Below, piece by piece: positions 3,657 to 22,837 of a stretch of DNA of 32,000 nucleotides. Both the position numbers and the translations under genes were made by a program. The notes beneath the pieces were generated by a model. It worked only from the letters and a program-made list of their open reading frames with translations, was not told the origin of the DNA and did no database searches. The stretch's first letter is position 1. The number at the start of each line of letters is the position of its first letter. Source of the stretch: Candidatus Heimdallarchaeota archaeon (lineage in GTDB: Archaea > Asgardarchaeota > Heimdallarchaeia > Heimdallarchaeales > Kariarchaeaceae); NCBI GenBank assembly GCA_030149205.1, contig JASBSB010000008.1:91318-123317 (forward strand), written 5' to 3'.

Positions 3657-3680
3657 CAAACAGGTTATAATTCATGAGCT

Positions 3681-3694
3681 AATATAAGTTTCGT
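3681..3694 (-). promoter_or_regulatory. Putative BRE-TATA promoter of the ParA-like gene
   Basis: The minus strand reads ACGAAA-CTTATATT, a purine-rich BRE directly followed by a TATA box at -32..-25 from ATG 3656. Confidence 0.55.
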
Positions 3695-3814
3695 ATTTTC
3701 ATTTTGAATTCATCCAATCTATGGACTTATATTGAGACAGTATTGAAATTATTCCATTTAATATTGAACTTTATAGTCACTAAATATCCTTAATTACATA
3801 GGAAAGCCATATTG

Positions 3815-5200: not shown

Positions 5201-5212
5201 AGTTTGTTCCTC

Positions 5213-6595
5213 CTAAATTGATTGTGAGAAAAGATGTTTCCCTGGGTCATAATACTGGTCAAATACCGATGCTATGATTCTTGAAAAGATCTTCCCCTTA
5301 GATGTTGACTCCCATCCAGCTTCTGTTACTTGTAACAGACCCAAATTTACAAATTCATCAAGTATCTTTACCTTGGAATTAATTTCATTGACTGCCTTTA
5401 AGCCATACCGTGATTCAACAACTTGGGGATTTATTTCTCCTTGACAGAGAAAATCCATTATTAATTTCTTGTGTAGAATATCATCTGAACTCATTGAATG
5501 ACCTTTTACCGTTGCAGTACCATATTTTTCAATTAGCCGCTCATATTCAGCCATATCCTTTGAATTTTGAGCGTATGCAAGTTCAAGTTCACTAATTCCA
5601 GAATAACCTAATGCAATTAAGTCTGTCCCTGCTTTTGTTGTATACCCCATAAAATTTCTTCTTAAGGTCTTTTTTTCATAACTTTGCCAAAGTCCATCAT
5701 GCTTTGTTGAAAAATGATCAAAGCCGATTTGTTCATAATCTTGATTAATAAAAAATTTACGTGCTGAAAGAAATCGATTCAATTTTTCTGATCCTTTCGC
5801 AATCACATTTAATGGAATAGCTTTATGATGCCGAAATAATGTGGGAAAATGTGCATAGCTGTACAATGCTATTCGATCAGGATGAATGGTGTTTACAAGT
5901 CGAAGGGTTTTTGCAAAGTTTTCATCTGTCTGGTAGGGTAATCCATAAATTAGATCCATATTTACACTCTCAAATCCCTTTTCTCTTGAATATTCAATTA
6001 ATGAGTTAGTCTCTTCGAAGGTTTGGAATCGGTTAAGTTTTTCTTGAACCTCAGGGTCAAAATCTTGAACTCCCACAGATATACGGTTAAAGTTAAATTC
6101 TGACAACACATCGATATGCTCATCTGATGTGACTGATGGATGTATCTCAATAGATAGTTCTGCGTCCTTGAGGACTTTGAAATTTGTCCAGATTGTTGTA
6201 AATAAGTCTTTGAGTTGATCAGGTGTTAGATGGGTTGGGGTTCCTCCACCTAGGTGTAGCTGTATGACCTCGTTTCTTGGCAAATACAGCTCAGAGGTTT
6301 TACGAATCTCTTCTTTTAGAACTGATAAATACCTTTCAACTCTATCCTCTCTATGTGTTACAAGTACGTTACATGCACAGAATAAACATCTTCTAATGCA
6401 AAACGGGATGTGTAAATAGAGGCTTAATGATTCTTCCTTGTGCTTGCTCTTTTCAATATCATCGAGATAGTTTTGCACGTTGTAATTCGATTTCCAATTA
6501 GGCACCGTCGGATAACTGGTATATCTCGGAACACGTAAGTCAAACTTCTCAATTTCTCCGACTTTTATATCTTCAATAGATTCTTGTTCAATCAT
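5213..6595 (-). CDS. hemN: Oxygen-independent coproporphyrinogen III dehydrogenase (radical SAM)
   Basis: RYTSYPT, CxxxCxxC (HIPFCIRRCLFCACN), LHLGGGTPT and RRNFMGYTT, which mark true HemN rather than the HemW chaperone. Confidence 0.93.
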   Translation of the reverse strand: MIEQESIEDIKVGEIEKFDLRVPRYTSYPTVPNWKSNYNVQNYLDDIEKSKHKEESLSLYLHIPFCIRRCLFCACNVLVTHREDRVERYLSVLKEEIRKTSELYLPRNEVIQLHLGGGTPTHLTPDQLKDLFTTIWTNFKVLKDAELSIEIHPSVTSDEHIDVLSEFNFNRISVGVQDFDPEVQEKLNRFQTFEETNSLIEYSREKGFESVNMDLIYGLPYQTDENFAKTLRLVNTIHPDRIALYSYAHFPTLFRHHKAIPLNVIAKGSEKLNRFLSARKFFINQDYEQIGFDHFSTKHDGLWQSYEKKTLRRNFMGYTTKAGTDLIALGYSGISELELAYAQNSKDMAEYERLIEKYGTATVKGHSMSSDDILHKKLIMDFLCQGEINPQVVESRYGLKAVNEINSKVKILDEFVNLGLLQVTEAGWESTSKGKIFSRIIASVFDQYYDPGKHLFSQSI

Positions 6596-7619
6596 AATTT
6601 TTCCACCTTTTTACTATCTCCACCATCTCACCCACGAGATTAACATCAGAATCTTTATGGATTCCTTGAGCTAAATTAAAAATATATTTGTTCCCAAACT
6701 TTGTCCCTTCCTCTAGAACATGTTGAGTCTCCTTCCTTACTGTATCCAGATTTGTTTGTAGAACACTTGGATCTAGATTCCCTTGTAGTATAACATCTTG
6801 TGAATAGTTTTTACGAACATTTGATAGTGAGAGAGTTGAATCTATACTGATGACATCAAATGAAAGCTTAACAAGTTCTGGAAGCAAATGCGAACTCCCT
6901 CTTGCATAGATTGAGTTTGGAACACCATTCAGACTTTGGATGATCTTCTTCAAGTGGGGAGAAACCCATTGCTGAAATTGCCAGGGAGATAAATAAAGTG
7001 CCCAAGATTCAAAAATTTGAACCATATCAACACCAGCAGACATTTGAGAATTTAGCTGAGATATGATTATATCACTTAATTTATCTAAGAGATTGTCAAA
7101 TGCATCTGGATAAAGGTATGCAAATTTTTTTGTTTTCAATGCGTCACGGGTAGATTTACCCTCAATTAAGTAACTTGCAAGGGTGAATGGCCCTCCTGCA
7201 AAACCTATCAACCATTTATCACTAATTTCTTCTCTAACTAGCTTCAAAGACTCTACAACGTAGGGGAAATCTTCATCAGGTTGCGGGATAAGTATGTCCG
7301 AAATCTCTATTGGATTTGTTAATGGTTTCTGCAGTTTAGGACCTTGGTTTGGAACAATCTTTAACCCCCTCTGCATGTAGTAAAGTGGTATTAAAATATC
7401 AGAGAAAATAATTGCTGCATCGAGGTTAAATCTTTGAATTGGTTGCAGAGTTATTTCTTTTGCAATATTTGCATTCATCACCATATCCTCAAAGGATTTG
7501 CCTTCACGAAGTTTTCGATACTCAGGGAGGTAACGACCGGCTTGTCGCATAAACCAGATAGGAGGTCTTTCTGGGGTGATTCCTTTAAATAACGATGAAA
7601 AAAGTTCTCTCGAGGTCAT
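6588..7619 (-). CDS. hemE: Uroporphyrinogen decarboxylase
   Basis: PPIWFMRQAGRYLPEY, IIFSDIL, FAGGPFTLASYLIEG and LQGNLDP. Overlaps hemL by 4 nt and hemN by 8 nt. Confidence 0.95.
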   Translation of the reverse strand: MTSRELFSSLFKGITPERPPIWFMRQAGRYLPEYRKLREGKSFEDMVMNANIAKEITLQPIQRFNLDAAIIFSDILIPLYYMQRGLKIVPNQGPKLQKPLTNPIEISDILIPQPDEDFPYVVESLKLVREEISDKWLIGFAGGPFTLASYLIEGKSTRDALKTKKFAYLYPDAFDNLLDKLSDIIISQLNSQMSAGVDMVQIFESWALYLSPWQFQQWVSPHLKKIIQSLNGVPNSIYARGSSHLLPELVKLSFDVISIDSTLSLSNVRKNYSQDVILQGNLDPSVLQTNLDTVRKETQHVLEEGTKFGNKYIFNLAQGIHKDSDVNLVGEMVEIVKRWKNYD

Positions 7620-8905
7620 AAGTTTGTCACCACCTCAGAAATTTTATCAAGAGTCCAATTAAGAATTTTAGAACTATGAGCTGTAGACAGAAATGATACC
7701 TCGAATGGACTCGGTGGCAAATAAACTCCTTGTTTCAACAACTTTTTGTGAAAGACTTTATATTTGTCTTGTGCGTCGATTCCAAGCTGCTCTGGCTTAA
7801 AAATTGTCCTATTTTCTTGAAATACAATCCAAAGAATGCTTGCAAGAGATACAACACCAGCTTGAATCGAATTATCCGCAAAAATTGAATCTAATGCCTT
7901 TGCGTAATCTTCAGATTTTTTATCTAACTCTCTGTAAACATTTCCATTTTGATCTGACAAAATTTCTAGCGTGGTTAATCCAGCACTCATCGCCACCGGA
8001 TTACCACTCAATGTACCTGCTTGATACACTGGACCAAGCGGAGCAATGTAACTCATTAAGTCAGCTCTTCCTCCGTAGGCACCTACAGGAAATCCTCCAC
8101 CTATAATCTTTCCAAAGGTAACAATATCTGGATATAGGTTGTAATATCCTGTAGCTCCAGCCAGTCCAATCCTAAATCCAGTAATGACCTCATCAAGAAT
8201 AAACATAGATCCATATTCTTTACAATGAGATTGAATTTCATGCATAAATGTACTAGATTGAACTAACAATCCGTTATTTGCTGGAACGCCTTCAATAATC
8301 ACTGCTGCTATATCTTCCCCGAACTTTTCAAAGAGAGCTTTCAACTTGTCTGAATCACCTAATGGTAGAACAAGAGTTTCAGAAGAGACTGAGGAAGGAA
8401 CTCCTGCACTTGAACTCAATCCAATTGTAGCCAAACCGCTTCCGGCTTTTACAAGCATAGAATCTGCGTGCCCATGGTAAGTTCCCTCAAATTTTACAAT
8501 GTATCGTCTATTTGTGTACCCCCTTGCCAATCTGATGGCAGACATGACAGCCTCTGTTCCACTATTCACAAAACGGATCCAATCGGTAGAAGGATGAAGC
8601 TCAATAATTTTCTCTGCGAGTTCGACTTCAATACGAGAAGAGGTACCATAGGTTAACCCATTTTTAATCTGCTTCTCCACTGCCTTAATTACTCGCTGAT
8701 CTGAATGACCCAAAATTAGAGGACCGAAACTCATGCAATAATCAATGTATTGCTGACCTTCCACATCTACTAAAGTTGTTTCATAACTCTTTTCTATAAA
8801 CAAAGGATCACCATCTACAGAGTTTAAAGCTCTCACAGGTGAAGATACACCTCCAGGCATTACTTTGCGAGCCCGTTGTTTAATGTCATTTAATCTTTCA
8901 ACCAT
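7616..8905 (-). CDS. hemL: Glutamate-1-semialdehyde 2,1-aminomutase
   Basis: MPGGVSSPVRA, RFVNSGTEA, KFEGTYHGHAD, DEVITGFR, PLP lysine in FGKIIGGGFPVGAYGG, and QAGTLSGNP. Confidence 0.97.
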   Translation of the reverse strand: MVERLNDIKQRARKVMPGGVSSPVRALNSVDGDPLFIEKSYETTLVDVEGQQYIDYCMSFGPLILGHSDQRVIKAVEKQIKNGLTYGTSSRIEVELAEKIIELHPSTDWIRFVNSGTEAVMSAIRLARGYTNRRYIVKFEGTYHGHADSMLVKAGSGLATIGLSSSAGVPSSVSSETLVLPLGDSDKLKALFEKFGEDIAAVIIEGVPANNGLLVQSSTFMHEIQSHCKEYGSMFILDEVITGFRIGLAGATGYYNLYPDIVTFGKIIGGGFPVGAYGGRADLMSYIAPLGPVYQAGTLSGNPVAMSAGLTTLEILSDQNGNVYRELDKKSEDYAKALDSIFADNSIQAGVVSLASILWIVFQENRTIFKPEQLGIDAQDKYKVFHKKLLKQGVYLPPSPFEVSFLSTAHSSKILNWTLDKISEVVTNL

Positions 8906-9867
8906 TGATTTTTCACCAGATCCTCTGCATGATATGTAATAATCATATCTGCACCCGCCCTCCTCATAGCCGTTAAATTTTCAAGAACTATTGATTTTTC
9001 CTCAAATAGCCCTGCTTTTACTGCCACTTTGACCATAGAATATTCTCCACTGACATTATAGGTATAAAGCGGTAAGTTTGTCATTTGACGGGCTTGTTGG
9101 ATAATGTCAAGGAAAGCAAGGGCAGGTTTGACCATCACCGCGTCTGCTCCTTGCTCTCCATCAGCTAAGACCTCAGAAAGTGCTAACCTCCTGTTACGAA
9201 TATCAATTTGATAACTTTTTCTGTCTCCAAAACTTGGTGAACTTTCAGCTGCATCTCGAAAAGGTCCATAATATGAGCTAGAATATTTGGCAGAATAACT
9301 CAAGATTGAGCGGTCAGTATAACCATTTTCATCAAGAGCTTGACGAAGAGAGCGAACTCTAAGATCCAGCATGTTACTAGGTGCCAACCAATCTGCTCCG
9401 GCTTGAGCATAAACTAGACCAGCTTTTGCATACAAATCAAGAGATTTATCATTGTTTACTGAGCTATCCGAATCAAGGATACCACAGTGACCATGTGATG
9501 TGTATTCACAGAGGCAAACATCAGCATATAACTCAATGGAGCGACCGTAAGCCTCCTTTAGTAATCTTAGAGCAGAAGGGACCGGTCCTTTTTCATCGTA
9601 GGCTGATGAACCAACCTCATCTTTATTTTTGGGAATTCCAAATAAAATATAATGTCTTAATCCATCATTTTGAAGTTTATCAATATATTCAGATGCAAGT
9701 TCTGGACTCATTTTGTATATTCCGGGCATAGATTGGATTTCTTTTTTTACACCTTTACCTTCAGTTATGAAAAGCGGATAAACAAGGTGCTTATAACTTA
9801 AATCGGTTTCTGCTAATGACTCTCTGAGAGTTTGGCTTCTCTTATATCTTCTAAATCTGTAATTCAT
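8890..9867 (-). CDS. hemB: Porphobilinogen synthase (ALA dehydratase), Zn-binding type
   Basis: DVCLCEYTSHGHCG zinc site, the two catalytic lysines (YSAKYSSSYYGPFRDA and MVKPAL), and YNVSGEYSMVK. Confidence 0.97.
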   Translation of the reverse strand: MNYRFRRYKRSQTLRESLAETDLSYKHLVYPLFITEGKGVKKEIQSMPGIYKMSPELASEYIDKLQNDGLRHYILFGIPKNKDEVGSSAYDEKGPVPSALRLLKEAYGRSIELYADVCLCEYTSHGHCGILDSDSSVNNDKSLDLYAKAGLVYAQAGADWLAPSNMLDLRVRSLRQALDENGYTDRSILSYSAKYSSSYYGPFRDAAESSPSFGDRKSYQIDIRNRRLALSEVLADGEQGADAVMVKPALAFLDIIQQARQMTNLPLYTYNVSGEYSMVKVAVKAGLFEEKSIVLENLTAMRRAGADMIITYHAEDLVKNQWLKD

Positions 9868-11470
9868 AAGTTTCTAACTCCTTTTTTAATGTGTTAACTA
9901 TACCTTCCACAGTTGGAGACTCTGCCATTTTTGATTTGATTCCAAGTTCATCCAGTTGACTTTGAACTGATTTCCCAATTACAATCCAATTGAACTTAGA
10001 AGATTTTTCCAGGGAATTAATTACATGTAAGACCCCTTTAGTTGAAAATCCAACAATATAATCTGGTTCAAATGGTAATTCAACACTCAGATATTTAGTT
10101 GAATAGACTTTAAAATGATCAACGTACTCAAAGGGTGATACAGTGTAAGACTCACCTGAAAAATATACCACTTTATCTTTAGTGCTTAACACTTCCTTCA
10201 AATGAAGTTGTAATTCACTCATCCCATTTAAGGAAACAATATTGACAGGAAATCCATTTTTTCTTAAAATTTCACTTGTCCTATAACCAACAGCAGCTAC
10301 TTTGAATTTAGACTTTGGAAACTGTTGTTGTAGTTTATTCAAAAATGGAATTGCATGCTTACTGGATATAATTACCCAGTTTGCGGATTTCCAAGATTGA
10401 ATCACATTTGAATTATTGAGTAACGAATAATTAGTTTCATACTCAATGATTTTTAAATTTGAAGCCATGTAACCTAAATTTACGGCTTCAGAAATGTATG
10501 GAGCAGCTGTTTCATCGTCAGTCAAGAATAAAATTGAATTTCCATTATTTTTAGAATCTGATGTTCTTGAATCCATGTTTTCACTGGCTATGAATTTTAA
10601 GAAGCGGTTTTTTAGAGCATTAATTGTATTATCTTGAAGTAAAATTCTATTGAAATTAGAAGTACCAATAGATTCAAGGTAATAGGTGGATGAGAGTTGA
10701 ATTTCACTGTCCCCAACATTTGTTATCGATATCCCAACTCCACTATCACATCCACCAAGAAACTGTCCTAACAATTCCCTCTCAACCTTAGTTATGAGAA
10801 AGCTATCTTCATCACCGATCTCTCTCAATTCAGAATACTCACCTTTTCTTACTTGAACCGCAATAGCAGATTGTCCAGGAGATGTTGGGAATCTGTCAAG
10901 GGGGAGAATTATCATCTGAATGTTCTTAGCAATTTTTAGAACTATTCTGTCAAAAACAGCTGCAGACATAACTAATCCATCGATATATTCTGTTTCAAGT
11001 TGTTTCACTCTTGTATGAACATTTCCTCTAATATCAAGTGGGATAATCGTTGGATCTAGAGCTTTTAGTTGGCTTCTTCTACGAATTGAACCTGTGGCTA
11101 TTCTTGAAAATTTTCTTATTTTTAAAGGTGATGTTGATAATAAGTTATCAGATTTAATCAACAGAACATCATTTGGAGTGTCACGCTTTAGAACAGTAAC
11201 TATTTCTAACTCATCTGGTTGTTCTAAGGGTAAATCTTTCAAACTATGAACTGCTATGTCAATCTTACCTTCCAGTAATTCTTGCTCCAATCTGCTTGTA
11301 AATACACCCTGTCCTCGGAAGCTTGAGATGGGGGAAACCAAATCAATATCACCCTTACTTGAGATTCCTTTAATCGTAACTTCTTGGTTGAGCTTATTGA
11401 TAATGGCATCTTTAACCATTTTAGCCTGAATTAAGGCTAATTCGCTCTTTCTGGTTCCTATACTGATCAA
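9851..11470 (-). CDS. hemC: Hydroxymethylbilane synthase fused to a uroporphyrinogen III synthase domain (HemC-HemD)
   Basis: The N-terminal ~300 aa has IGTRKSELAL, DIAVHSLKD, GSIRRRSQL, DIRGNVHTR and the cofactor Cys in GGCDSG. The C-terminal ~230 aa looks like HemD (WVIISSKHAI, AAVGYRTSEIL, IVIGKSV, AESPTVEGIV). The TTG start overlaps the hemA TGA. Confidence 0.88.
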   Translation of the reverse strand: MISIGTRKSELALIQAKMVKDAIINKLNQEVTIKGISSKGDIDLVSPISSFRGQGVFTSRLEQELLEGKIDIAVHSLKDLPLEQPDELEIVTVLKRDTPNDVLLIKSDNLLSTSPLKIRKFSRIATGSIRRRSQLKALDPTIIPLDIRGNVHTRVKQLETEYIDGLVMSAAVFDRIVLKIAKNIQMIILPLDRFPTSPGQSAIAVQVRKGEYSELREIGDEDSFLITKVERELLGQFLGGCDSGVGISITNVGDSEIQLSSTYYLESIGTSNFNRILLQDNTINALKNRFLKFIASENMDSRTSDSKNNGNSILFLTDDETAAPYISEAVNLGYMASNLKIIEYETNYSLLNNSNVIQSWKSANWVIISSKHAIPFLNKLQQQFPKSKFKVAAVGYRTSEILRKNGFPVNIVSLNGMSELQLHLKEVLSTKDKVVYFSGESYTVSPFEYVDHFKVYSTKYLSVELPFEPDYIVGFSTKGVLHVINSLEKSSKFNWIVIGKSVQSQLDELGIKSKMAESPTVEGIVNTLKKELETYELQI

Positions 11471-12600
11471 TTAGAATAGACCTCCTCATCAAGCACATCT
11501 TCAAACCTTTTTTGTGAGATGTACATTATCTCGTTAACAAATTTCTCAAAGTTCCGTTTTGCCTTCTTATCTTCTTTTAAAAATAAACCCATTCTTTGTT
11601 CGGCAACAACTTTTACATCTGACCTAAAACTTTTCCAAAATTCAGATTTTGAGAGTCTTTGATACTCTTTCAGAATTTTCAAAAGCTCATCATCCAACAT
11701 TTCCCTAATTCCACGGAACTCACCATCATCATCAAAGTTTCTAGAAAGAGAAAGCAAGGATTCCATTGAAAAGACATTAATATTCTCCAGATCCTTAATT
11801 TCTGGATGACAGTTTCTAGGGAGACCAAAATCAAATATTAGTTTCTCAGAGTTTAAAGGAAAGTCAGAAGAATAAACAAATGGTGTCTCTGCACGTGTGG
11901 TATAGAAAAGAACTGGATGATTAGGGACAGAATTATAAGATTCAGCCCGGTAACCCTCCAATTCAAGACCCAATCTATTTTCTGTTCTTGTATAAACTGT
12001 AATGTTATCATTCAATTCTTTAAGATGGTGAACAATTATCTCAGCCATCTTTCCCGTTCCCACAACACCTAGAGAAGAAGCTTGTTTAATTTGCTGTTCA
12101 AAATTTGATGCAACAAAATAAATTGTAGATTTTTTTGCATAAGATAAAATTGTGGAAGACCTTAGACGCTTTCCCGTACGAATTACCATTTGCATTAAGC
12201 GCTTCAAGTCACCACTCATGTAAGGCTCTGATTCAGTATACGCTGTTTTGAATTGATGTTGAATCTGGTCTTCCCCAATAACCAATGAATCAAGTGAAGA
12301 GATAACCTCAAGTAAGTGCTCTAATCCCTGTTTTCCTTGTAATTGTTCACAGCTTTGCAAATCTTTCCAATGGTTAAATTTACGGAGCCTTTCAAGATAT
12401 TGTTCTGATTGTTCTTTATCTGAATTTAACGTTACAAGTAAAACCCTTTGACAAGTGTTCAGGTAAAAAAAATTTCCGAATACCTTGTGAATCTCCTTCA
12501 AATATTGAGCTCTGTTCTCAGATGGTAGAATCACTTTTTCAACATCCTCAATGCTACATCTCCCCAGCCTCCACGACAGAACCAAAAGAGGAAAATCCAT
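11467..12600 (-). CDS. hemA: Glutamyl-tRNA reductase
   Basis: Catalytic YLNTCQR (canonical TCNR), HLLEVISSLDSLVIGEDQI, NADPH site GVVGTGKMA and DFGLPRN. The start is placed at ATG 12600 (MDFPLL...), which follows GGAGG by 9 nt and lies 2 nt after the hemH stop. Confidence 0.88.
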   Translation of the reverse strand: MDFPLLVLSWRLGRCSIEDVEKVILPSENRAQYLKEIHKVFGNFFYLNTCQRVLLVTLNSDKEQSEQYLERLRKFNHWKDLQSCEQLQGKQGLEHLLEVISSLDSLVIGEDQIQHQFKTAYTESEPYMSGDLKRLMQMVIRTGKRLRSSTILSYAKKSTIYFVASNFEQQIKQASSLGVVGTGKMAEIIVHHLKELNDNITVYTRTENRLGLELEGYRAESYNSVPNHPVLFYTTRAETPFVYSSDFPLNSEKLIFDFGLPRNCHPEIKDLENINVFSMESLLSLSRNFDDDGEFRGIREMLDDELLKILKEYQRLSKSEFWKSFRSDVKVVAEQRMGLFLKEDKKAKRNFEKFVNEIMYISQKRFEDVLDEEVYSN

Positions 12601-12601
12601 C

Positions 12602-13624
12602 TCAATTTTCCTCCAAGTAACCTTGCAAAAATTGGGCAACTTTGTTTGCGTAATCATCATCATCATTTGGAACTGAGACTCGAACATAGTTCCGAACACC
12701 ATATTTCTTGGCCAAGTCACCATATAAGATATCAATCTCATACAAGGTTTCTACATGGTCTGAAACGAATCCTAGGGGAACCATAATGATTGTAGAAGGA
12801 GATGTTTTCGAAATTTCCTCTACGGTTTTATCTGTGTAAGGTCTTAACCAAGGAAGAGGTCCAACCTTACTTTGGTAAGAAAGATGAAAGCTAATCTGAT
12901 TTTTGTATTCTCCTAATCCATCGATTATAAGTTGTTTAGCCTCTTCTATCCTTCTGGGATATTGTTCACCACGATCTACATATTTTTGTGGTAACCCATG
13001 AGCAGAAAATACCACGTGAACATTTTTATCCATCACCATCCCATCTTTCTGGAATTGTGTAAGTTTATTCTTAATCTCATCACTCCACCAGTCGATGTAA
13101 AAACCCTGTGTTGTCCAATCATCAATTTCTGTTATTGTCAAATGTGAAGTATTTTCTTGTGTTTCTAGAAACCTATAAAAATCATTGAAACTAGAACCTG
13201 TAGTTGCAGAAGCATAGTGTGGGTATTGAGAAAATAACAAGATGTGGTCATACCCATTTGTAATTTGTGATTTTAACTCCTCAACTCTCGGATAAGTATA
13301 TCTCATAACAACTTGAGTATCCACATCTAATCCAGATTCAACTAAGTTTGATTTAACTTTATTCGCCAATGATTCAGTGATAAGAAGAATAGGACTTCCA
13401 TTCCCAATTTGACCGTACATATGACGTGTTCCCTTTGATCTGAATATTGAAACCATTTTTCCAAACTGTTTTTGAAAGAGGTTCATAGGAAAAGGGAGTT
13501 GGATCATGTCCTTATCTTCAAAAATATTTTGAAGGAATTTAGGGATATCTTCAAGTGTCTCAGGTCCACCCATATTTAGAAATAAAATTAAAGTCTTCTT
13601 TTTACTAGATCCTAGACCACTCAT
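12602..13624 (-). CDS. hemH: Protoporphyrin ferrochelatase
   Basis: LFLNMGGPETLED, FSQYPHYASATTGSS, FSAHGLP, SYQSKVGPLPWL and VPLGFVSDHVETLYEID. Confidence 0.96.
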   Translation of the reverse strand: MSGLGSSKKKTLILFLNMGGPETLEDIPKFLQNIFEDKDMIQLPFPMNLFQKQFGKMVSIFRSKGTRHMYGQIGNGSPILLITESLANKVKSNLVESGLDVDTQVVMRYTYPRVEELKSQITNGYDHILLFSQYPHYASATTGSSFNDFYRFLETQENTSHLTITEIDDWTTQGFYIDWWSDEIKNKLTQFQKDGMVMDKNVHVVFSAHGLPQKYVDRGEQYPRRIEEAKQLIIDGLGEYKNQISFHLSYQSKVGPLPWLRPYTDKTVEEISKTSPSTIIMVPLGFVSDHVETLYEIDILYGDLAKKYGVRNYVRVSVPNDDDDYANKVAQFLQGYLEEN

Positions 13625-13879: not shown

Positions 13880-14170
13880 GTGGTCACAGTTTTAGGTGAA
13901 CAGAGAAATATAAATACAGAGAATAAAAAATTGAATGAAGTAGAAGCAGAACAGGGAGAAAAAGAACAGATTATACCTCTCCAGCAACTAAAAGATCGAG
14001 ACCTTTCCATAATTAAATTTAAGCAGTATCAACCAAATAATTTGCATCAATTCCAAAACACACCAGATCAGAAGAAATTTTCAAACAAGAGAAAAAATAT
14101 TGCTAACCTAAGCAGACCTGTGTCATTGAAGTCAGTGATATTTAAGCTCGTGAGTGAGGTGAATATTTGA
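13880..14170 (+). CDS. Hypothetical small protein (doubtful)
   Basis: 96-aa Q/N/K/E-rich ORF with a GTG start. The only support is a 4-nt TTGA overlap with the next gene. Confidence 0.3.
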   Translation: MVTVLGEQRNINTENKKLNEVEAEQGEKEQIIPLQQLKDRDLSIIKFKQYQPNNLHQFQNTPDQKKFSNKRKNIANLSRPVSLKSVIFKLVSEVNI

Positions 14171-15321
14171 AATTATCAGAGAAAAATAAACTGTTATTAG
14201 TCTCGATACTAGTAATTTCCCTTACCACAGGCTCTATTGGATCATTTCCGGGGATAATTTATTTTTATGGACATCTCGGTCCCGTCATCTTCGCTGTATG
14301 GAGCCCAGATGGGTCAACGATAGTCTCCGGGGGTGCGGATACAAATATAATCATTTGGGACGTTAAAAACTCTTCATCAAGCACTGGCCTCTATAAATCA
14401 CCATTTATGGATGATTTTAGAGGGGACCCAATTTCAGGGTTAGCTTGGTCACCAAATGGGACTTATCTCGCGGGTATGAGCTGGAAAGATGGATTACATA
14501 TCTGGAATGAAAGCTACCACAAAAAGACCACTTTTCATCCTGCTGGTTACTCCTTTAGTGCTATGTCGTGGTTTGAAGGTGGCTTTCTGCTTGGGTTACT
14601 GGTGGGCGAGAATCGAGTTAACCCATATTTATCACTGAACGCAATCCTTGCAAGACCTAACTTGATAAATGGGAGTATATCTCCAATCCTGAAAACAAAT
14701 GCCACAATCTTAGACATCAAGGTGAACAGAAACAATCAGGTGGCACTGCTCTTGAAAAACAGCACGGTTGTCACCATAATTGGCACCCAGCAACAATCCT
14801 ATGTGTTCCAGCACATGCCGAAGGCAATCGAATGGGACAATCAAACCTTGGTAGTTAGTGTTCGCAACGAGATACGGTTTTTTGATGGCAAAAACACGGT
14901 GTTGAAGAACTCAAAAGATGTGACCGCTTTCGCCTTTAATTCCAACCACTCTGAGCTGATTCTTGGAGATGACAGAGGAGTGGTAAGTGTCTGGAACAAA
15001 ACAGACCTCACGAAGAAACTAGAATTTAAGACACCATCTTATAGAATTCACAACTTTGATTGGAGAGGTTCCTCAGTGTTGATCACAAGCAGTAATTCAA
15101 GTTTTTTCCTGTATTCGACCAGCAATGGGACACTGTTGGATTCTTATGGAGGTGTTCTGAGTTCCATTCCTGGTTCCCATTACCCTGTGGGACAATATCT
15201 TGATTACCCCTTTGTCTCAATTCTATTAATTTTTGTTCTTATCATTCCAATTATGAAACGAAGAAAACTTTTGCATACAATCAATCGAAGGTCTTACAAA
15301 AATATCTCTGAACTAAATTAA
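14167..15321 (+). CDS. Secreted, C-terminally membrane-anchored WD40 beta-propeller protein
   Basis: Signal-like N-terminus (KNKLLLVSILVISL), WD40 units (AVWSPDGSTIVSGGADTNIIIWD, LAWSPNGTYLAG, LILGDDRGVVSVWN) and C-terminal TM FVSILLIFVLIIPI followed by KRRK. Confidence 0.8.
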   Translation: MKLSEKNKLLLVSILVISLTTGSIGSFPGIIYFYGHLGPVIFAVWSPDGSTIVSGGADTNIIIWDVKNSSSSTGLYKSPFMDDFRGDPISGLAWSPNGTYLAGMSWKDGLHIWNESYHKKTTFHPAGYSFSAMSWFEGGFLLGLLVGENRVNPYLSLNAILARPNLINGSISPILKTNATILDIKVNRNNQVALLLKNSTVVTIIGTQQQSYVFQHMPKAIEWDNQTLVVSVRNEIRFFDGKNTVLKNSKDVTAFAFNSNHSELILGDDRGVVSVWNKTDLTKKLEFKTPSYRIHNFDWRGSSVLITSSNSSFFLYSTSNGTLLDSYGGVLSSIPGSHYPVGQYLDYPFVSILLIFVLIIPIMKRRKLLHTINRRSYKNISELN

Positions 15322-16668: not shown

Positions 16669-17919
16669 ATGCTTATAAACAAGTTGGACAAATACTCTAT
16701 GATGAAGAGGGTTTCAACAATTCTAATTTTGGTTATCTTATTCCAATTTGGAATAAACCTAGGGGTGAGTTCAATGGGATATCATCCAATATCAGAGGTA
16801 ATTCAACCACAAATCACCAATGCAACATATGTTTCTGTTAAACTTGGTGGGATCTCAACATCAGTAAATGATGGGGTAACGTTAAATATCACTGTTAAAT
16901 TTCAGACGGATGATGTTAACAAAACTTTGGTGGATTTATCACTGTCAACAACTGAGGGTCATTTTGCAAACAACTTAACAGACACATCTGTCCAGTTCAA
17001 AGCTGCGAATGTAACTTTATGGTTTCTTTGGACTGCCCCTGTAATTTATCAGAAACAGTCACTTAATGCAAATATCTCAACTACTGCCACAATGGACACA
17101 TTAACTGCTTCCGATTACAATATAGTGAAAGTTAACCCGGTTTTTTATGATTTTTCTGTAACTTGGATTCAGCCTACACAGATATTTCAAGATCAAACAG
17201 CTGCCCCTATTGAAATACAAGTGAAAAACAAGGTAAATTCTTCTCTTGTCTATAATGCAACAGTCTCTCTTAATTTAGAAATAGGAGTATTTACTGGGAC
17301 AAACAGAAGTGATATTGTGGTTTTCACCAATCAATCTGGTGTGGCTAAGGCATACATGAACTTCAAACCAGTATCATTTATCTATGATAAAAACACAGTC
17401 TCGGTCTCTGCAATAATTACAAAACCTAAGTACAATGACCTTACGTCTAACACCACCCTCACTGTCATCAAAGGAGCAAATAAACCATCGGCATCAGTGA
17501 AATTTAGTACACATACGGATGGGGGAATATCAATTGTTGAAATCTTAATTTCTGCAAAACTCAATGGTAATCCCTGGTGGAATGCCACCTTCAAGGTTAT
17601 TGCCAATGCAGGACAGTTTGAGAACGGACAACAGACGATATCTGTGAAGACAAATTCATCTGGTTTAATATTAACTACTTGGAACTCTTCAAAGATTCCG
17701 AAGCATGTTGACGATTTATCGGTATTTTTTGTTGTGAAACTTCAATCACTGGATTATGGAAACTTTTTCAAAGATCAAAACTACACCTTATCACTTAAAG
17801 GAACACCAACAACAATCTCAATACCATCCTCTAAGAACCCTTCACCGCTGAACATTAGCTCAATCATTATTTCTTTTATAATTACAGTTATCATTTTTAG
17901 GAGGAAAATATTCAAATGA
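16669..17919 (+). CDS. Membrane-anchored Ig-like (invasin/Big_1-like) surface protein
   Basis: Signal peptide (MMKRVSTILILVILFQFG; true start may be ~16699), about 3 beta-rich units ending in TNxSG/W motifs, many N-x-S/T sequons, and a C-terminal TM followed by RRKIFK. Confidence 0.75.
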   Translation: MLINKLDKYSMMKRVSTILILVILFQFGINLGVSSMGYHPISEVIQPQITNATYVSVKLGGISTSVNDGVTLNITVKFQTDDVNKTLVDLSLSTTEGHFANNLTDTSVQFKAANVTLWFLWTAPVIYQKQSLNANISTTATMDTLTASDYNIVKVNPVFYDFSVTWIQPTQIFQDQTAAPIEIQVKNKVNSSLVYNATVSLNLEIGVFTGTNRSDIVVFTNQSGVAKAYMNFKPVSFIYDKNTVSVSAIITKPKYNDLTSNTTLTVIKGANKPSASVKFSTHTDGGISIVEILISAKLNGNPWWNATFKVIANAGQFENGQQTISVKTNSSGLILTTWNSSKIPKHVDDLSVFFVVKLQSLDYGNFFKDQNYTLSLKGTPTTISIPSSKNPSPLNISSIIISFIITVIIFRRKIFK

Positions 17920-20900
17920 GAGGCAAACAAAGATCTGTCTCTCCAGTCGTAGCAATGGTTTTAATAATTGCATTAGCTGTTGCAAGTGCTGCCACTGTCT
18001 ACATTGTTGTTGTAAACTTTATGAATCAAACCAACTACAATATTGCACCTGTTAGTTCTGTATTGGCATATGATTACAATAATGACACTAAAATTGATGT
18101 GCTGAAGGTTAAACTAGAAAATGTTGGATCCAGTTCACTAGAGATATCATACATAGCAATTCAAGATGCTAACTCACCAAAACAATGGTTTAAAGATCCA
18201 AACTCGCCATCCAAACTAGATGCAAAATCCTCACTTGATTTTACCTTCTTTACAAACAGCAGTTCATCACAGCTCTCATCAGGTCAAGATGTTATTATGT
18301 TTATTGGAAAATCAGTCAATGATTTTGCAACCATTAAACTAAGCATACCAACTCAGATTAATTTAGGAACTCCTGTAACTGTAACTGTTCTTTCCGCTGG
18401 GAGTCCTGTAGTTGGGTCTATAATAAGCTTTACCCAGGCAAGTGGCTTACCTGCAAGTGTACCTCCCCAGTCCACAGATGGAAAAGGACAGGTCAAGGTT
18501 TACCTTCTTCCCAATTATTACTATGCAACAACATCAAATGGTGTGAAATCTAAGGTGTTTTTCTCTCTTGATGAACCTTCAATCACAATCAACGGAACCG
18601 CTCAAAAAATCAGTGTAAAAGTTGTTGACAGCAAGAACCAACCCCTCTCAGGAATTAGTGTTTATGCTGCTGACAAAAATCAGAACGATATCGGTAAATC
18701 TACAATTACAAACAGTTCTGGGCTTGCTGACATGGTATTGGCTGAGGGTAGCTTTTTATTAAGAGCAAGCTATCTTTCTCAGAACTACTGGTCGTCTCAA
18801 ATAAATGTTCCTAGCTCAACCAAATTAGTAACCATAAAAATTACGTCTGGAACCCTGAATGGTAGCATATATTTTGGGAAGGTACAGGTTAAGCAACGAC
18901 TCTATGTCAGACTTTACACTTCTTCAAATGCAACAATGAACCAAGGTCAATGGACCAACAGTAGTGGATATTTCAGCTTTACAAATGGAGTGGTATCAGG
19001 TTTGTACAGGTTAAGACTCCAATATTCTGGGAGATATTTCTGGAGTGGAATCCTCTCTACTAGTACACCAGACCTTCAGGCGAACTTTGGTGGAGGAATA
19101 ATCTCAATCAATATTACCGCAGGCAACTACTCTTTAAGAAGAGGTGTATTAACCAGGCTATTTACAGACACGAACACATACACCAGCAGATACAGTTGGA
19201 CTAACACAACAGGAGGAGTGAATTATGGAGCTTACCCTGGAGGGAACTATAAAGTCAGAATTGATTGGCTCAGAAAATATACTTTCTCAAAGGTTTTTGA
19301 GAATACAGGAACTGCTTTACATCTTGATTTTGCTGGAGGAAAATTGATTGTTCAAGTTAGATTGAATGATACCACCATTCGTGGAGGAGTACTAACGAGG
19401 CTTTTCCTCCCAGATAATAACTATACCTACCTCTACGGTTGGACTAATTCATCTGGATTTGTAAATTATGGAGTTGTACTTGCAGGAAATTATAAACTAC
19501 GAGTAGACTGGTTAAGAAAATATGTTTACACCTCTGAATTCTATCATGATGGTCTTGGTACAAAATTTGTTGATGTAAATGGATTCAAGCTCTCAGTCAA
19601 AGTAAATCTGGATGGTCAATCTATTAGGTCAGGCGTGTTAACCAGACTATTCCTTGGCTCTTCTACAACATACACTTATCTTTACGCCTATGTTAATTCC
19701 ACAGGATATGCCAATTATGGAGGTATATTAAGTGGTATCTACAGGTTACGTATTGATTGGTTAAGGCAGTATGTTTATTCTTCAGACTTCGTGCATAATA
19801 CAACAGGTCCAAAAACAGTTAACTTAGCTGGTGGAAGACTCTTAATCCAGGTCAAATTAGATAATTCACCAATTAGGAGTGGAGTCTTGACTAGGTTATT
19901 CCTCAATGGATCAAATACTTACACCTACCTCTACGCATACACTAATGGAACAGGTTGGGTTGATTATGGAGGAGTATTACAGGGTAATTATAAGCTTAGA
20001 ATAGATTGGATGAGGCAGTATCAATTTTCCTCTGGTTTCTTCCACAATTCGAGCGCTCCAAAATCAATTAACATGCAAGGAGGTAGACTGGTAATCCATC
20101 TAACATCTGGGAACCAAAACCTCAGATCAGGAATTCTGACTAGGTTATTCCTTAACGGGTCAAATACTTACACGTACCTTTATGCCTATACCAATGCCAG
20201 TAGCTATGTGGACTTCGGTGGAATACTCCCTGGTGTCTATCAGCTTAGAATAGATTGGTTAAGAATGTATACATTTACCGTAGGGTTTGATCATCAAAAC
20301 TCTACAGCCAAATCCGTAAATGTACAAGGTGGAACCCTCTCGACTCAGGTAAAGATAGGAGGAACTCCTGTTCAGAGTGGGGTGTTAGTCAGACTCTTTA
20401 CCAATTCATTTTCGTATACATACCTCTATGCTTATACTAATTCTTCAGGTTATGCAAACTTTGGAAATGTGATTGGTGGAAACTTCTCAATGAGAGTGGA
20501 TTGGCAAAGACAATACACCTACTCTGGATTCTTGATCCATAATGATAGTACCCCATTAAGTTTTAGCTTAGATGGAACCGGAAAGCTTCTGATCAGAGTC
20601 CGAGATAACGCAAACTCTCCTTTAGCTGGAAGTCAACTCATCAGGTTATTTTTAACACCTGGAAACAGCTATACCTACATTTATAGGTATACCAATGGAA
20701 CTGGATATGTCCAATTTAACACCATATTGGCAAATACTTACCAACTTAGGTGGGATAATCAGAATCCTGACTGGTATTCAAACGTGTTTACTGTAAACAA
20801 TACCGCTTCAGCAACTGTCGACATTACTGTCACACCCACAGCAACAGCTCAAAACGTTTCAAATCCACTAAATCCTGTGAGAGTAACCTCTGTAAGCTAC

Positions 20901-20951
20901 CCAAGTCATATTGACAAGAAAATGGGGATAAGATATCCCCTAATCAGGTGA
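17916..20951 (+). CDS. Giant archaeal pilin-like protein with tandem prealbumin/carboxypeptidase-regulatory-like beta-sandwich repeats
   Basis: Class III signal-like N-terminus MRGKQRS|VSPVVAMVLIIALAVASAATVYIVV, a pilin-like globular domain (LKVKLENVGSSSLEI), then about 10 domains of ~82 aa. No C-terminal TM. AGGAGG upstream, ATGA overlap with the previous gene. Confidence 0.8.
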   Translation: MRGKQRSVSPVVAMVLIIALAVASAATVYIVVVNFMNQTNYNIAPVSSVLAYDYNNDTKIDVLKVKLENVGSSSLEISYIAIQDANSPKQWFKDPNSPSKLDAKSSLDFTFFTNSSSSQLSSGQDVIMFIGKSVNDFATIKLSIPTQINLGTPVTVTVLSAGSPVVGSIISFTQASGLPASVPPQSTDGKGQVKVYLLPNYYYATTSNGVKSKVFFSLDEPSITINGTAQKISVKVVDSKNQPLSGISVYAADKNQNDIGKSTITNSSGLADMVLAEGSFLLRASYLSQNYWSSQINVPSSTKLVTIKITSGTLNGSIYFGKVQVKQRLYVRLYTSSNATMNQGQWTNSSGYFSFTNGVVSGLYRLRLQYSGRYFWSGILSTSTPDLQANFGGGIISINITAGNYSLRRGVLTRLFTDTNTYTSRYSWTNTTGGVNYGAYPGGNYKVRIDWLRKYTFSKVFENTGTALHLDFAGGKLIVQVRLNDTTIRGGVLTRLFLPDNNYTYLYGWTNSSGFVNYGVVLAGNYKLRVDWLRKYVYTSEFYHDGLGTKFVDVNGFKLSVKVNLDGQSIRSGVLTRLFLGSSTTYTYLYAYVNSTGYANYGGILSGIYRLRIDWLRQYVYSSDFVHNTTGPKTVNLAGGRLLIQVKLDNSPIRSGVLTRLFLNGSNTYTYLYAYTNGTGWVDYGGVLQGNYKLRIDWMRQYQFSSGFFHNSSAPKSINMQGGRLVIHLTSGNQNLRSGILTRLFLNGSNTYTYLYAYTNASSYVDFGGILPGVYQLRIDWLRMYTFTVGFDHQNSTAKSVNVQGGTLSTQVKIGGTPVQSGVLVRLFTNSFSYTYLYAYTNSSGYANFGNVIGGNFSMRVDWQRQYTYSGFLIHNDSTPLSFSLDGTGKLLIRVRDNANSPLAGSQLIRLFLTPGNSYTYIYRYTNGTGYVQFNTILANTYQLRWDNQNPDWYSNVFTVNNTASATVDITVTPTATAQNVSNPLNPVRVTSVSYPSHIDKKMGIRYPLIR
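19098..20834 (+). repeat. Seven conserved ~83-aa intragenic tandem repeats
   Basis: Consensus RSGVLTRLFL..sxTYTYLYAYTNxxGYxxxGxxxxGxYxLRIDWLRQYxxS at ~249-nt periodicity. Confidence 0.92.
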
Positions 20952-22837
20952 ATATCATGAAGAAACTAACCATTCTAATTATTATCCTAGGTTTAAGCCT
21001 CATACTTCCAGGAAATGCGGTAGTCTCAGATCTAAACAGCTCAGTAATAATGACACCCACTGGTACATTACTTCCTACAACTAACTACACACTCTATGTG
21101 TATGTTGCAAACTCCACACATGGAATTTCAGGAGCAAATGTAACCTTTACAGTTTCAAGTGGGAAGCTTATCTCCTCTCCTCAGGCTGGAGGGCTTGTTT
21201 CACTCTCAACGTTAGAGGCTATTTCCAACAGTTCAGGGTATGTGAAAATTGTGTGGGAAAGTCCTCAGACAGATTTTAGCATTCCTACCATAAATGTACA
21301 ATTGCTGGCTGATATACAATACCCAGCAGAATCACTGAGTAAATCCTTAAGCAAAACAATATCTGTAGGCTCTCCAACTATTGATTCTATAGCACAAATC
21401 ACACAGAATCTGACTAAACCAGTATTGTCAAACCAATCTGTCGTAATCAAGACCACAGTGAAGAATAATCTGGGACTCCCCACACCAAACACACAGGTCT
21501 CACTTACTCTCCCTATTGGGAATTTCACCAGTAACAGTCAGGGATTAACAGATACAAATGGTGAGTTTATTGTCTCATGGAGAGCACCTATTCTTTCCAC
21601 TGCAAATCCTTCGCAGATTGCAAACCTAACAATATTGGCTCAAATTAGTCCATCAGTTAATAATTCAAAGATCTTTCTGATAAATGTAACTCTAGGAAAA
21701 GCAGCGGACATAGTAATTCAAAGCAGTTTACCACAGTTTACGAAAGAAGGTACAGTGCAACCAATCACAATAACAGTCCTAAACAATCAGACACTCCAAC
21801 AAGGTGCTGAGATATCCATCTCTACCACCAGAGGGTATTTCAAAAATCAAACTGGTTCATATGTACTTACCGATGCAACAGGTATATCAAACAGCACAGG
21901 ACAATTAACAGTATATTGGAAAGCACCAATCCTAGATAATAACTTGAATGTGACAAATGATTTCTCGCTTTTGTTAAATTTAGGTACAATTCAGGTTACA
22001 AGTGACTTTAACACAACTATCTACCCAGTGCTCAAAAGCTTCAAAGTTAAATGGTTGAGCTCAACAGCAGGATTCTCCCAAAATAAAACCATACCTGTTA
22101 GTCTTCAACTTTTGGACAGCGTAAGCTCTCTCCCCGTAGCAAACGCAAATGTTCAGCTCAGCAGTGAGTATGGTGTCTGGAATGTTAGTAATTCAGATGT
22201 GGTTTCACTCACTTCCGACTCTCAGGGAACAATAACTGGTTATATTGATGTCTCTAATGTCAAATTTGAATTTCAATTCCAAAATCTCACTGTTATATAC
22301 TCTGCTAGTAGCAGCAAATACAGGCCTATACAAGGAAATCAAAGTTTATCTATAGAAAGAAGCAGGCCAAATCTTGGGTTCAAAATTATCCTTGATTCTA
22401 AGAATGCAACAGTAGGGCAATCTATAGGCATTCTGATTAAAGTGGATTTGAAGGGTAATCCTGTACAAGATGTCACTTTGGAGTTAAGCACCACTACAGG
22501 GTACTTTGTAAATAGTACATCGGGTGTACCATCCAATTTTAGAGGTAGAACTGACACGGCTGGGTTATTGAAGGTAGTTTGGAAAACAGATAACATAAAC
22601 CAAACTGACTTCAATCTAACAAACTACATCCATATCAAAGCTTATTTCCAAAGTTACACATATGACCTTGGTTCCTATAAAATCAATCTCTATGAGAGTA
22701 CAACAAGTGCAACCACTAATATACTTCCGAATTCATCCCCAACAGCTGGTTCAAACTCGTTAATCATTGGGTCTATCGCAACCGCACTGTTGGTTGCAGC
22801 TGGAGGAACGATTATCGTAATTAAAAAATATAATTAA
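20948..22837 (+). CDS. Membrane-anchored Ig-like (invasin/Big_1-like) surface protein with about 5 domains
   Basis: Signal peptide MKKLTILIIILGLSLIL (likely ATG 20957 after AGGTGA), five units such as SNSSGYVKIVWESP, TDTNGEFIVSWRAP, SNSTGQLTVYWKAP and TDTAGLLKVVWKT, then a S/T linker and C-terminal TM + KKYN. Confidence 0.78.
   Translation: MNIMKKLTILIIILGLSLILPGNAVVSDLNSSVIMTPTGTLLPTTNYTLYVYVANSTHGISGANVTFTVSSGKLISSPQAGGLVSLSTLEAISNSSGYVKIVWESPQTDFSIPTINVQLLADIQYPAESLSKSLSKTISVGSPTIDSIAQITQNLTKPVLSNQSVVIKTTVKNNLGLPTPNTQVSLTLPIGNFTSNSQGLTDTNGEFIVSWRAPILSTANPSQIANLTILAQISPSVNNSKIFLINVTLGKAADIVIQSSLPQFTKEGTVQPITITVLNNQTLQQGAEISISTTRGYFKNQTGSYVLTDATGISNSTGQLTVYWKAPILDNNLNVTNDFSLLLNLGTIQVTSDFNTTIYPVLKSFKVKWLSSTAGFSQNKTIPVSLQLLDSVSSLPVANANVQLSSEYGVWNVSNSDVVSLTSDSQGTITGYIDVSNVKFEFQFQNLTVIYSASSSKYRPIQGNQSLSIERSRPNLGFKIILDSKNATVGQSIGILIKVDLKGNPVQDVTLELSTTTGYFVNSTSGVPSNFRGRTDTAGLLKVVWKTDNINQTDFNLTNYIHIKAYFQSYTYDLGSYKINLYESTTSATTNILPNSSPTAGSNSLIIGSIATALLVAAGGTIIVIKKYN

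Follow-up and report, generated by a model that had tools for sequence, protein, structure and literature searches.

We describe here a large surface protein gene on a 32,000 nucleotide (nt) stretch of DNA from Candidatus Heimdallarchaeota archaeon, an Asgard archaeon, with the whole of this stretch referred to below as the window (it lies on contig 9 of a 12-contig genome of 3.3 Mb that is 93.5% complete). The gene encodes a protein of 1011 amino acids (aa), hereafter the rod, in which an archaeal pilin-type N-terminus is followed by a chain of beta-sandwich domains. The explanation that we favour, with confidence a little better than even, is that the rod is a PibD-processed and glycosylated surface protein whose repeats act as a spacer and which is held by membrane-anchored immunoglobulin (Ig)-like partner proteins encoded beside it.

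The gene occupies positions 17916-20951 of the window on the forward strand, stop codon included, and its open reading frame (ORF) is open throughout and encodes the 1011 aa originally predicted. An AlphaFold2 (AF2) model of residues 1-395 built with 16 homologues (mean predicted local distance difference test score, pLDDT, of 87) comprises a helix at residues 10-36 and four beta-sandwich domains at 43-143, 154-226, 230-308 and 314-390, and with the repeats that follow the protein consists in total of a pilin-type helix and 11 beta-sandwich domains, namely a head, three divergent domains and seven strongly related repeats. The original prediction of about 10 domains of ~82 aa was right as to a beta-sandwich chain, while the count is 11 and the first domain is of ~100 aa. 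All features lie on the forward strand, beginning with the leader MRGKQRS (17916-17936), a predicted class III signal peptide that would be cut after Ser7 by a PibD-type peptidase as judged from motif conservation and the published rule, and the hydrophobic N-terminal pilin helix (residues 8-36, 17937-18023), which corresponds to the AF2 helix and to matches with PF07790 and TIGR02537. These are followed by the head domain D1 (residues 43-143, 18042-18344), aligned to archaeal pilins with VIA-align, by D2 (residues 154-226, 18375-18593), delimited by the AF2 model and homologue comparison and containing a conserved GLPASVPP loop, by D3 (residues 230-308, 18603-18839), a canonical CarboxypepD_reg/transthyretin-like domain by PF13620 and structure matches, and by D4 (residues 311-390, 18846-19085), a divergent repeat copy with a bacterial-type pattern (YRLRLQYSGRYFWS) recognised by the repeat profile at 24.7 bits and by AF2 strands. 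The seven tandem repeats of ~83 aa (residues 392-971, 19089-20828, with DNA boundaries at 19089, 19335, 19581, 19830, 20079, 20328 and 20574) are defined by the repeat profile, an AF2 two-repeat model and fold matches, and the C-terminal tail (residues 972-1011, 20829-20948) is without a transmembrane segment and unconserved among the homologues.

The rod begins MRGKQRS↓VSPVVAMVLIIALAVASAATVYIVVV (the arrow marks the predicted cut) with Val at +5, so that the RS↓VSP motif without Glu+5 is present as first described. The N-terminal sequence, MRGKQRS↓VSPVVAMVLIIALAVASAATVY, conforms to what is expected of archaeal class III proteins, with the short basic leader and the hydrophobic H-domain (about 20 residues or more) that characterise them. 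Residues 1-80 match PF07790 (Pilin_N) at 29.3 bits and the genome search gave 29.4 bits, both over the cut-off of 25.2, with TIGR02537 reaching 18.3 bits against a cut-off of 20. The motif [KR][KR][S/A/G]↓[VIL]SP[VI][IV]A is conserved in all 16 homologues, where the -1 residue is Ser in the window's genus and its nearest relatives and Ala or Gly elsewhere. Archaeal prepilin peptidases require Gly, Ala or Ser at -1 and a charged residue at -2, and the PilA pilins of Haloferax volcanii have the processing site RA↓VS (PMC4371748). Genome-wide we found pilin-type N-termini with very similar H-domains on five proteins, of 149, 290, 658, 698 and 1011 aa, with Ser at -1 in four and Gly in one. Because the archaeal peptidase rule allows any of the three residues and four of these five N-termini carry Ser, the Ser at -1 and the missing Glu+5, both flagged at first as oddities, are ordinary for archaeal prepilins. 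With Ser at -1 as the usual prepilin site in this lineage, predictors that accept only Gly or Ala would miss these substrates. A single gene in the genome, on contig 4 near 386 kb, encodes a prepilin peptidase candidate (271 aa, Peptidase_A24 32.8 bits and Arc_PepC_II 28.2 bits). The class III or pilin-type character of the rod N-terminus is supported by these data, and from the same sequence features we infer that it is cleaved.

The pilin-like character extends beyond the helix. Solved archaeal pilins that align to the model include those of the Sulfolobus solfataricus pilus (8fjs_A, Z 8.9, root mean square deviation (rmsd) 3.9, 124/132 residues aligned), Pyrobaculum calidifontis (8fk7_A, Z 8.3, 131/136), the Sulfolobus acidocaldarius Aap filament (8q30_A, Z 7.8, 132/141) and P. 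arsenaticum (6w8u_A, Z 7.6), together with an archaellin (5tfy_I, Z 8.6). The pilin alignments span model residues 1/7 to 146/154, and the Z values are middling with whole subunits covered. The predicted N-terminal pilin helix is thus borne out both by the PF07790 score of the N-terminal piece and by the alignment of residues 7-150 with solved pilins, and we conclude on the basis of the model that these residues represent a complete archaeal type IV pilin module of helix and head. D1 also contains a D-x-N-x-D-[GT]-x-[IV]-D loop (YDYNNDTKID, rod residues 53-61, window 18072-18098) in which D53, D57 and D61 are invariant in the 16 homologues. The pattern resembles the DxDxDG calcium-binding loops of EF-hand and dockerin proteins and suggests a metal site beside the pilin helix.

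The other four proteins with pilin-type N-termini were also looked at. On contig 7, in the region 59791-60987, the 149-aa pilin-sized protein (AKS↓VSPVIAVVLLIALTVAAG) has as its neighbour a secreted protein of 189 aa with a match to the eukaryotic translocon-associated protein beta (PF05753, 43 bits, cut-off 22.4), and the gene after the latter has an N-terminus resembling by eye a Get3/ArsA-type ATPase. The proteins of 658, 698 and 290 aa (contig 4, L012:8171-10147; contig 7, L013:8008-10104 and L013:18423-19295) carry near-identical pilin-type H-domains and ectodomains without a Pfam match, and the 698-aa gene is likewise preceded by a gene for a large secreted protein (736 aa). This genome seems to use the pilin handle repeatedly, on several large surface proteins.

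A profile of the repeats delimits the strong copies at residues 392-473, 474-555, 556-638, 639-721, 722-804, 805-886 and 887-971, scoring 112-144 bits each (E 1e-37 to 1e-47), and detects weaker related domains at 311-389 and 230-308. The motifs said to be shared by the last seven repeats do recur at a period of ~83 aa (GVLTRLF-type exact in five repeats, YTY[LI]Y in six and R[IV]DW in six), with the qualification that the first and last repeats deviate (YTSRYSW; LRWDNQNPDWY). The two-repeat AF2 model (31-row alignment, pLDDT 96.6, predicted template modelling score (pTM) 0.86) has eight strands per repeat and no linker, and the high pTM suggests a fixed domain-domain orientation between repeats. 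Foldseek matched the repeat model to the Gram-positive pilins GBS52, SpaA and BcpA and to the Bacillus anthracis TIE protein, and VIA-align gave the C-terminal domain of the Caf1A usher (Z 9.4), CnaB2 (Z 8.6), SlaB (Z 8.0) and transthyretin (Z 7.2-7.5), while an AlphaFold Database model of a tandem 'carboxypeptidase regulatory-like' protein was matched with a template modelling score of 0.73. The related domain D3 is recognised directly by PF13620 (residues 232-302, 36.3 bits, over the cut-off of 32.3) and its structure aligns closely with 3e8v_A (Z 12.9, rmsd 1.5) and carboxypeptidase D (1qmu_A, Z 10.3). A single late repeat on its own had no Pfam match at E <= 1, and the tie of the late repeats to PF13620 is by way of bacterial relatives that are PF13620 arrays; the repeat profile gave only chance-level matches to Protein Data Bank sequences (adeno-associated virus capsid, E 0.046; GH61), which were discarded. 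The repeats have the seven- to eight-stranded prealbumin-like sandwich, and as modelled they are the known transthyretin/CarboxypepD_reg-like stalk domain.

In composition the rod has no Cys, 0.6% Glu and 7.2% Tyr and contains 28 N-x-S/T sequons, compared with 15.4 +/- 3.4 expected from 5000 shuffles (P = 0.0004). One sequon falls at repeat position 38-41, in a TN-x-[ST]-G loop, in 7/7 repeats, with Asn39 conserved at 94% and Ser/Thr41 at 96% among 48 aligned repeats. The view that the many sequons mark a glycosylated exterior protein agrees with this excess, and the rod is probably glycosylated.

The rod gene lies between genes for two anchored Ig-like proteins. The upstream partner gene (16669-17919, forward strand) encodes 416 aa with a signal peptide, Big_1-type Ig-like repeats and a C-terminal hydrophobic anchor with an RRK tail. 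Its stop codon overlaps the rod ATG (4-nt ATGA), and a Shine-Dalgarno-like AGGAGG is located eight bases 5' of the rod ATG (13 from its first base). The downstream partner gene (20948-22837, forward strand) encodes 629 aa from GTG 20948 or 626 aa from ATG 20957, also with a signal peptide, Ig-like repeats and a C-terminal anchor. The two partners, which are paralogues of each other (28% identity, E 3e-20), match Big_1-type Ig domains weakly, contain numerous sequons and end in a hydrophobic anchor and a basic tail. An anchored Ig-like orthologue or larger homologue is found directly upstream of the rod gene in nine of ten loci from two families, the exception being one locus in family f7 without the pair. 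Orthologues of the downstream partner follow the rod gene in the three other loci of the window's own family that keep the three-gene layout. In a second family, which has two closed genomes among its members, the gene directly upstream of the rod gene encodes an anchored homologue of 618-622 aa. A word-index homologue search with the upstream protein as query returned itself only, and a search of genome contigs for related loci gave one locus only. As to the start of the downstream gene (window 20948-20960), the ORF call begins at GTG 20948, which overlaps the rod stop codon. Translation from ATG 20957 (MKKLTIL...), a codon preceded by AGGTGA, would begin with a typical signal peptide (MKKLTILIIILG...), and the ATG is the more likely start.

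At the C-terminus, the upstream partner and its orthologues have a conserved Pro, a short hydrophobic stretch (13-17 aa) and an RRKK tail in common, a layout resembling sortase/archaeosortase sorting signals (partner C-terminal regions at window 17800-17916 and 22740-22834, and in orthologous loci at L031:2852-4045, L032:5065-6261 and L034:4182-5369). Archaeosortase PF09721 had no match in the 93.5% complete genome in a search that also missed its Haloferax control, and no sorting-signal family was matched in the partners in NCBIfam.

A complex of rod residues 1-395 with the upstream protein was modelled from our own alignments alongside three controls. The interaction prediction score from aligned errors (ipSAE) was 0.78 for the pair compared with 0.28 for the best of the three controls, and the ipSAE mark is reached by 58/80 solved complexes and 2/110 mismatched pairs, a rough guide as our own alignments were used. 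Between the three runs at least 73% of contacts were shared, with a partner pLDDT of 80 or more. The modelled interface brings rod D2 (including the GLPASVPP loop), D3 and D4 together with partner residues 200-380, and its orientation is sensible for the membrane topology, with the N-terminal helix of the rod and the C-terminal anchor of the partner lying on one side. The model supports, short of proof, binding of the upstream partner to the base of the rod.

With a word-indexed search we recovered 13 homologous proteins, and an HMMER search with three repeats against 1.84 billion representatives returned 57 proteins at E <= 0.001 and 11 at E <= 1e-30. The family is present in 20/83 genomes of the class (5/11 in family f1, 8/31 in f3, 3/3 in f4, 3/12 in f7 and 0/22 in f5) and in 20/301 genomes sampled across the phylum, none of those 20 lying outside the window's class; two of the genomes carrying it are closed. 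Full-length homologues are of 868-1059 aa across families, so the length of the rod is conserved. In public records the homologues are named 'hypothetical protein', 'carboxypeptidase-like regulatory domain-containing protein' or 'flagellin-like protein' (MCE7735241.1, for instance, is a hypothetical protein of 'Candidatus Heimdallarchaeota archaeon'), and a full-text literature search found no paper describing the family. Its conserved length and partner gene make the family a specific candidate for a fibril or an adhesin on the Asgard cell surface.

The mechanism that we propose begins with cleavage at Ser7 by the single PibD-type peptidase of the genome, which would remove the short basic leader. 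The remaining ~860 residues would then form ten transthyretin/CarboxypepD_reg-like domains joined without linkers, the last seven being lineage-specific, giving a fairly stiff rod estimated at ~35-40 nm long in which each repeat has an N-glycan site at the equivalent loop. Among the conserved residues, Tyr, Phe and Trp would mainly build the domain core, and Arg and Asp would most likely stabilise the structure through ionic contacts on the domains or across their junctions, the repeats acting as a spacer stalk and not as seven binding sites. One or two anchored Ig-like proteins made together with the rod would grip the membrane-proximal domains D2-D4, and the assembly would stand on the cell surface by means of the pilin helix and the partner anchor, as an adhesin-like fibril or as a component of the irregular coat of protein that Asgard archaea typically have. 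The original suggestion of a minor pilin or adhesin is most likely correct.

A doubtful but serious alternative is that the rod is a true minor or tip pilin, whose helix is extracted from the membrane by type IV machinery so that it co-polymerises with a small major pilin as a pilus adhesin. The complete pilin module matches filament-forming archaeal pilins, and the five proteins of the genome with a very similar H-domain after [KR][SG]↓[VL]SP include one of 149 aa beside two of 658 and 698 aa. The shared H-domain also resembles that of H. volcanii PilA1-6, whose genes are likewise unlinked to the machinery (PMC4371748), and the genome does contain one locus with an ATPase and paired TadC, on contig 4. 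This locus is however on a different contig from the rod gene, and a Pfam scan of the window proteins found no pilus machinery in the window. The conserved membrane-anchored neighbour, predicted from the complex model to hold D2-D4, fits a cell-bound base better, and an extension of 860 residues per subunit would be hard to pack except at the tip of a filament. Co-occurrence says nothing either way, because the machinery and peptidase are near-universal in the class (TadC in 79/83 genomes and peptidase in 76/83) whereas the rod is patchy (20/83). The membrane-bound rod and a pilus-polymerised form may also be successive states of the same protein.

The first reading of the repeats had been that their dense aromatic and Arg conservation exceeds what a spacer stalk needs and forms a face for multivalent binding of glycan or another polyanion. 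Each of the seven repeats would on this reading present an Arg/Tyr/Trp face and the rod would be a multivalent lectin-like adhesin, for which there is some encouragement in the invariant and outward-facing R57 and D59, in R22, R62 and Y64, which are specific to archaeal repeats, in the Tyr-rich composition of the repeats (9.0% vs 3.7% in the proteome) and in the basic character of the rod (isoelectric point (pI) 9.65, net charge +39). A Y-x-Y-x-Y-x-Y strand, if exposed, would moreover resemble the aromatic strips of some carbohydrate-binding modules.

We consider such a binding face unlikely, and the evidence comes largely from relatives of the repeats. The more distant repeat matches come from bacterial proteins that carry Sec signal peptides; two of them were checked and are PF13620 arrays (P0023, 139 bits; P0043, 112 bits). 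In 80 repeats of Sec-secreted bacterial relatives aligned to the archaeal repeat profile we found the same G1-G2, L23, F24 (95%), Y31 (100%), T38, D/N39, G42 and F46, as well as Y54 (90%), R57 (99%), D59 (97%), Y/W60, L61 and F/W66, so that R57, D59, Y54, Y31, F24 and W/Y60 are just as conserved in proteins of other architectures. The archaeal repeats alone have R22 (where 97% of bacterial repeats have Tyr), Y33, Y35, Y37, R62, Y64, H72 and the sequon. By this comparison of sequences about half of the dense aromatic and Arg conservation is the hallmark of an old repeat subfamily. In strand C of the 48 aligned repeats Tyr31, 33, 35 and 37 alternate with variable positions 34 and 36 that hold Arg (25%) or Asp (29%), and since the variable charged side of a two-sheet sandwich faces solvent, the tyrosine ladder is most likely core-facing; if DSSP has the register of the B-C hairpin right, it would lie beside the invariant L23. 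In strand E the residues Y54, L56, I58 and W60 form a hydrophobic side and N53, K55, R57 and D59 the opposite one. R57 and D59 may belong to a structural ionic network (with R22, or with K20 in the bacterial form) or to a domain-domain contact, a conserved polar patch being also possible there. About 26 of 83 repeat positions are conserved as hydrophobic or aromatic, a normal core size. With 7.2% Tyr (9.0% in the repeats) the rod ranks near the 99th percentile of the genome's long ORFs, and total aromatics (13.1%) are in the normal range for these. Polyanion binding through net charge was ruled out as a family trait, as pI ranges from 4.5 to 9.7 across the family (4.5-9.2 in the homologues). 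Pfam and NCBIfam scans of the rod matched no carbohydrate-binding or lectin family, and a PilY1-type DUF2341/beta-propeller domain had no Pfam match at E <= 0.01, with which a remote relationship is still compatible. AF2 and Foldseek place the repeat in a known stalk fold, and F24, Y31, Y54, R57, D59, W/Y60 and F/W66 are equally conserved in bacterial arrays, so the claim of conservation beyond the needs of a stalk is not supported, nor is that of a multivalent face given that the tyrosines likely point inward and positive charge is not a family trait. The conserved aromatics and arginines are thus probably for the most part scaffold and not a binding face, and with a seven-fold glycan-binding face unsupported the finding is less unusual than first thought.

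That the N-terminus is an ordinary uncleaved signal anchor, making the rod a type II membrane protein unrelated to pilin processing, could appeal to Ser being the least common accepted -1 residue and to the whole-protein PF07790 and TIGR02537 scores just under their cut-offs, but it is very improbable in view of the retention in the 16 homologues of the [KR][SAG]↓VSP motif, its spacing from Met1 and the H-domain (with canonical Ala or Gly at -1 in other families), the N-terminal piece passing PF07790, the match of helix and head to pilins in three dimensions and the presence of a PibD-type peptidase of a kind that accepts Ser at -1 (PMC4371748).

Several points weigh against the processed and partner-held spacer rod that we prefer. 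Over its whole length the rod protein scores 23.1 bits with PF07790, under the cut-off of 25.2, and the pilin module with an H-domain common to the 149-aa paralogue fits pilus polymerisation at least as well as membrane retention. In the repeats R57 and D59 point outward from strand E, and the placing of conserved residues in core or surface was judged from strand alternation and variability. Conservation of the modelled interface is not above that of the rest of the domains, either in the rod (0.38 vs 0.36, P = 0.32) or in the partner (0.33 vs 0.37, P = 0.79). The interface also holds sequons (rod N338; partner N261, N305 and N371) whose glycans would clash if the sites were used, and models of this type can give good scores to beta-sandwich chains that are packed side by side and do not really bind.

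As a large pilin-like archaeal adhesin the rod is of a kind already known, and comparison with described systems indicates where it is similar and where it departs from them. The closest in its N-terminus are PilA1-6 of H. volcanii (PMC4371748), with R-A↓V-S-P there and R-S↓V-S-P here, a short basic leader, an H-domain common to paralogues, genes unlinked to the machinery and N-glycosylation sequons. The PilA proteins are however pilin-sized and form a filament, whereas the rod has ten extra domains (~860 aa) and a conserved anchored neighbour. Described neighbours of archaeal pilus genes include large adhesin-like proteins of multiple Ig folds and 'S-layer-like' proteins with a C-terminal anchor (PMC4858521; PMC13705601). 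Compared by description, the multi-Ig proteins of such type IV filament loci (e.g. arCOG05616, arCOG07037) are similarly large, secreted and rich in beta-sandwiches, have been put forward as adhesins or minor pilins and are paired with a large C-terminally anchored protein, but they lie inside pilus loci, mostly of Thermoproteota and Methanobacteriati, while the rod cassette stands alone, uses another repeat family and is found in one Asgard class. In the Sulfolobus bindosome a prepilin-type N-terminus also holds a large extracellular protein at the surface, the cargo there being a solute-binding fold and not a rod.

The repeats have parallels of their own. Bacterial PF13620 arrays (P0023, P0043 and ~40 others) with the pattern VYLF...GSY...TD..G...F.L..G.YKFRADYLG.QFWS belong to the same repeat subfamily, matching by phmmer with E down to 1e-23 (P0021) and 2.7e-21 (P0023) and likewise arranged in tandem in large secreted proteins. 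They differ in having Sec signal peptides and other partner domains, several with YD/RHS-like N-terminal stretches, and their TD-x-x-G is replaced in the archaeal repeats by the sequon TN-x-[ST]-G and their Tyr by R22. Gram-positive stalks (CnaB2 8bdw, SpaA 5f44, GBS52 3phs, SdrD B repeats 10ps) share the prealbumin-like fold (Z 7.2-8.6), arranged in series as a rod that keeps a surface protein clear of the cell, but the rod of the Asgard archaeon is without isopeptide triad, LPXTG motif or sortase and is anchored N-terminally by its pilin helix. CnaB isopeptide cross-links were considered and ruled out, as there is no conserved Lys or Glu column in the 48 aligned repeats, Glu is at 0.6% and the catalytic Glu position of the CnaB motif G-x-Y-x-L-x-E is occupied by Ile/Val58. 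The S-layer stalk SlaB (8qox_B) is also a chain of similar beta-sandwich domains (Z 8.0-8.5), anchored in its case by a C-terminal helix and coiled coil and paired with SlaA.

It is conceivable, though rather unlikely, that the three-gene cassette builds an undescribed and pilus-independent appendage of Heimdall-group archaea, made of a pilin membrane handle, a fixed-length 11-domain glycosylated rod and, at its base, a clamp of one or two anchored Ig-like paralogues. If so, arrays of stalked fibrils would form part of the irregular non-crystalline Asgard coat or mediate attachment to syntrophic partners. Cultured Asgard cells have irregular protein coats rich in adhesin-like proteins (10.1101/2025.07.22.663070), and some cultured strains show unexplained surface filaments (10.1101/2025.07.22.663070; 10.1101/2025.02.26.640444). 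The rod family could be tagged, imaged or pulled down as a candidate for such a surface fibril or adhesin.

Elsewhere in the window, the gene at 14167-15321 (forward strand), two genes upstream of the rod, encodes a WD40 beta-propeller protein of 384 aa that has hydrophobic segments at its N- and C-terminal ends. Membrane-bound WD40 surface proteins have been reported for a cultured Asgard archaeon (10.1101/2025.07.22.663070), and by analogy the protein in the window may also belong to the cell surface. On the minus strand, positions 2661-13624 are taken up by a run of haem-biosynthesis genes, including ferrochelatase (296 bits) and glutamyl-tRNA reductase, and a 539-aa ORF within it (9851-11470) has by eye the look of a fused HemC-HemD.

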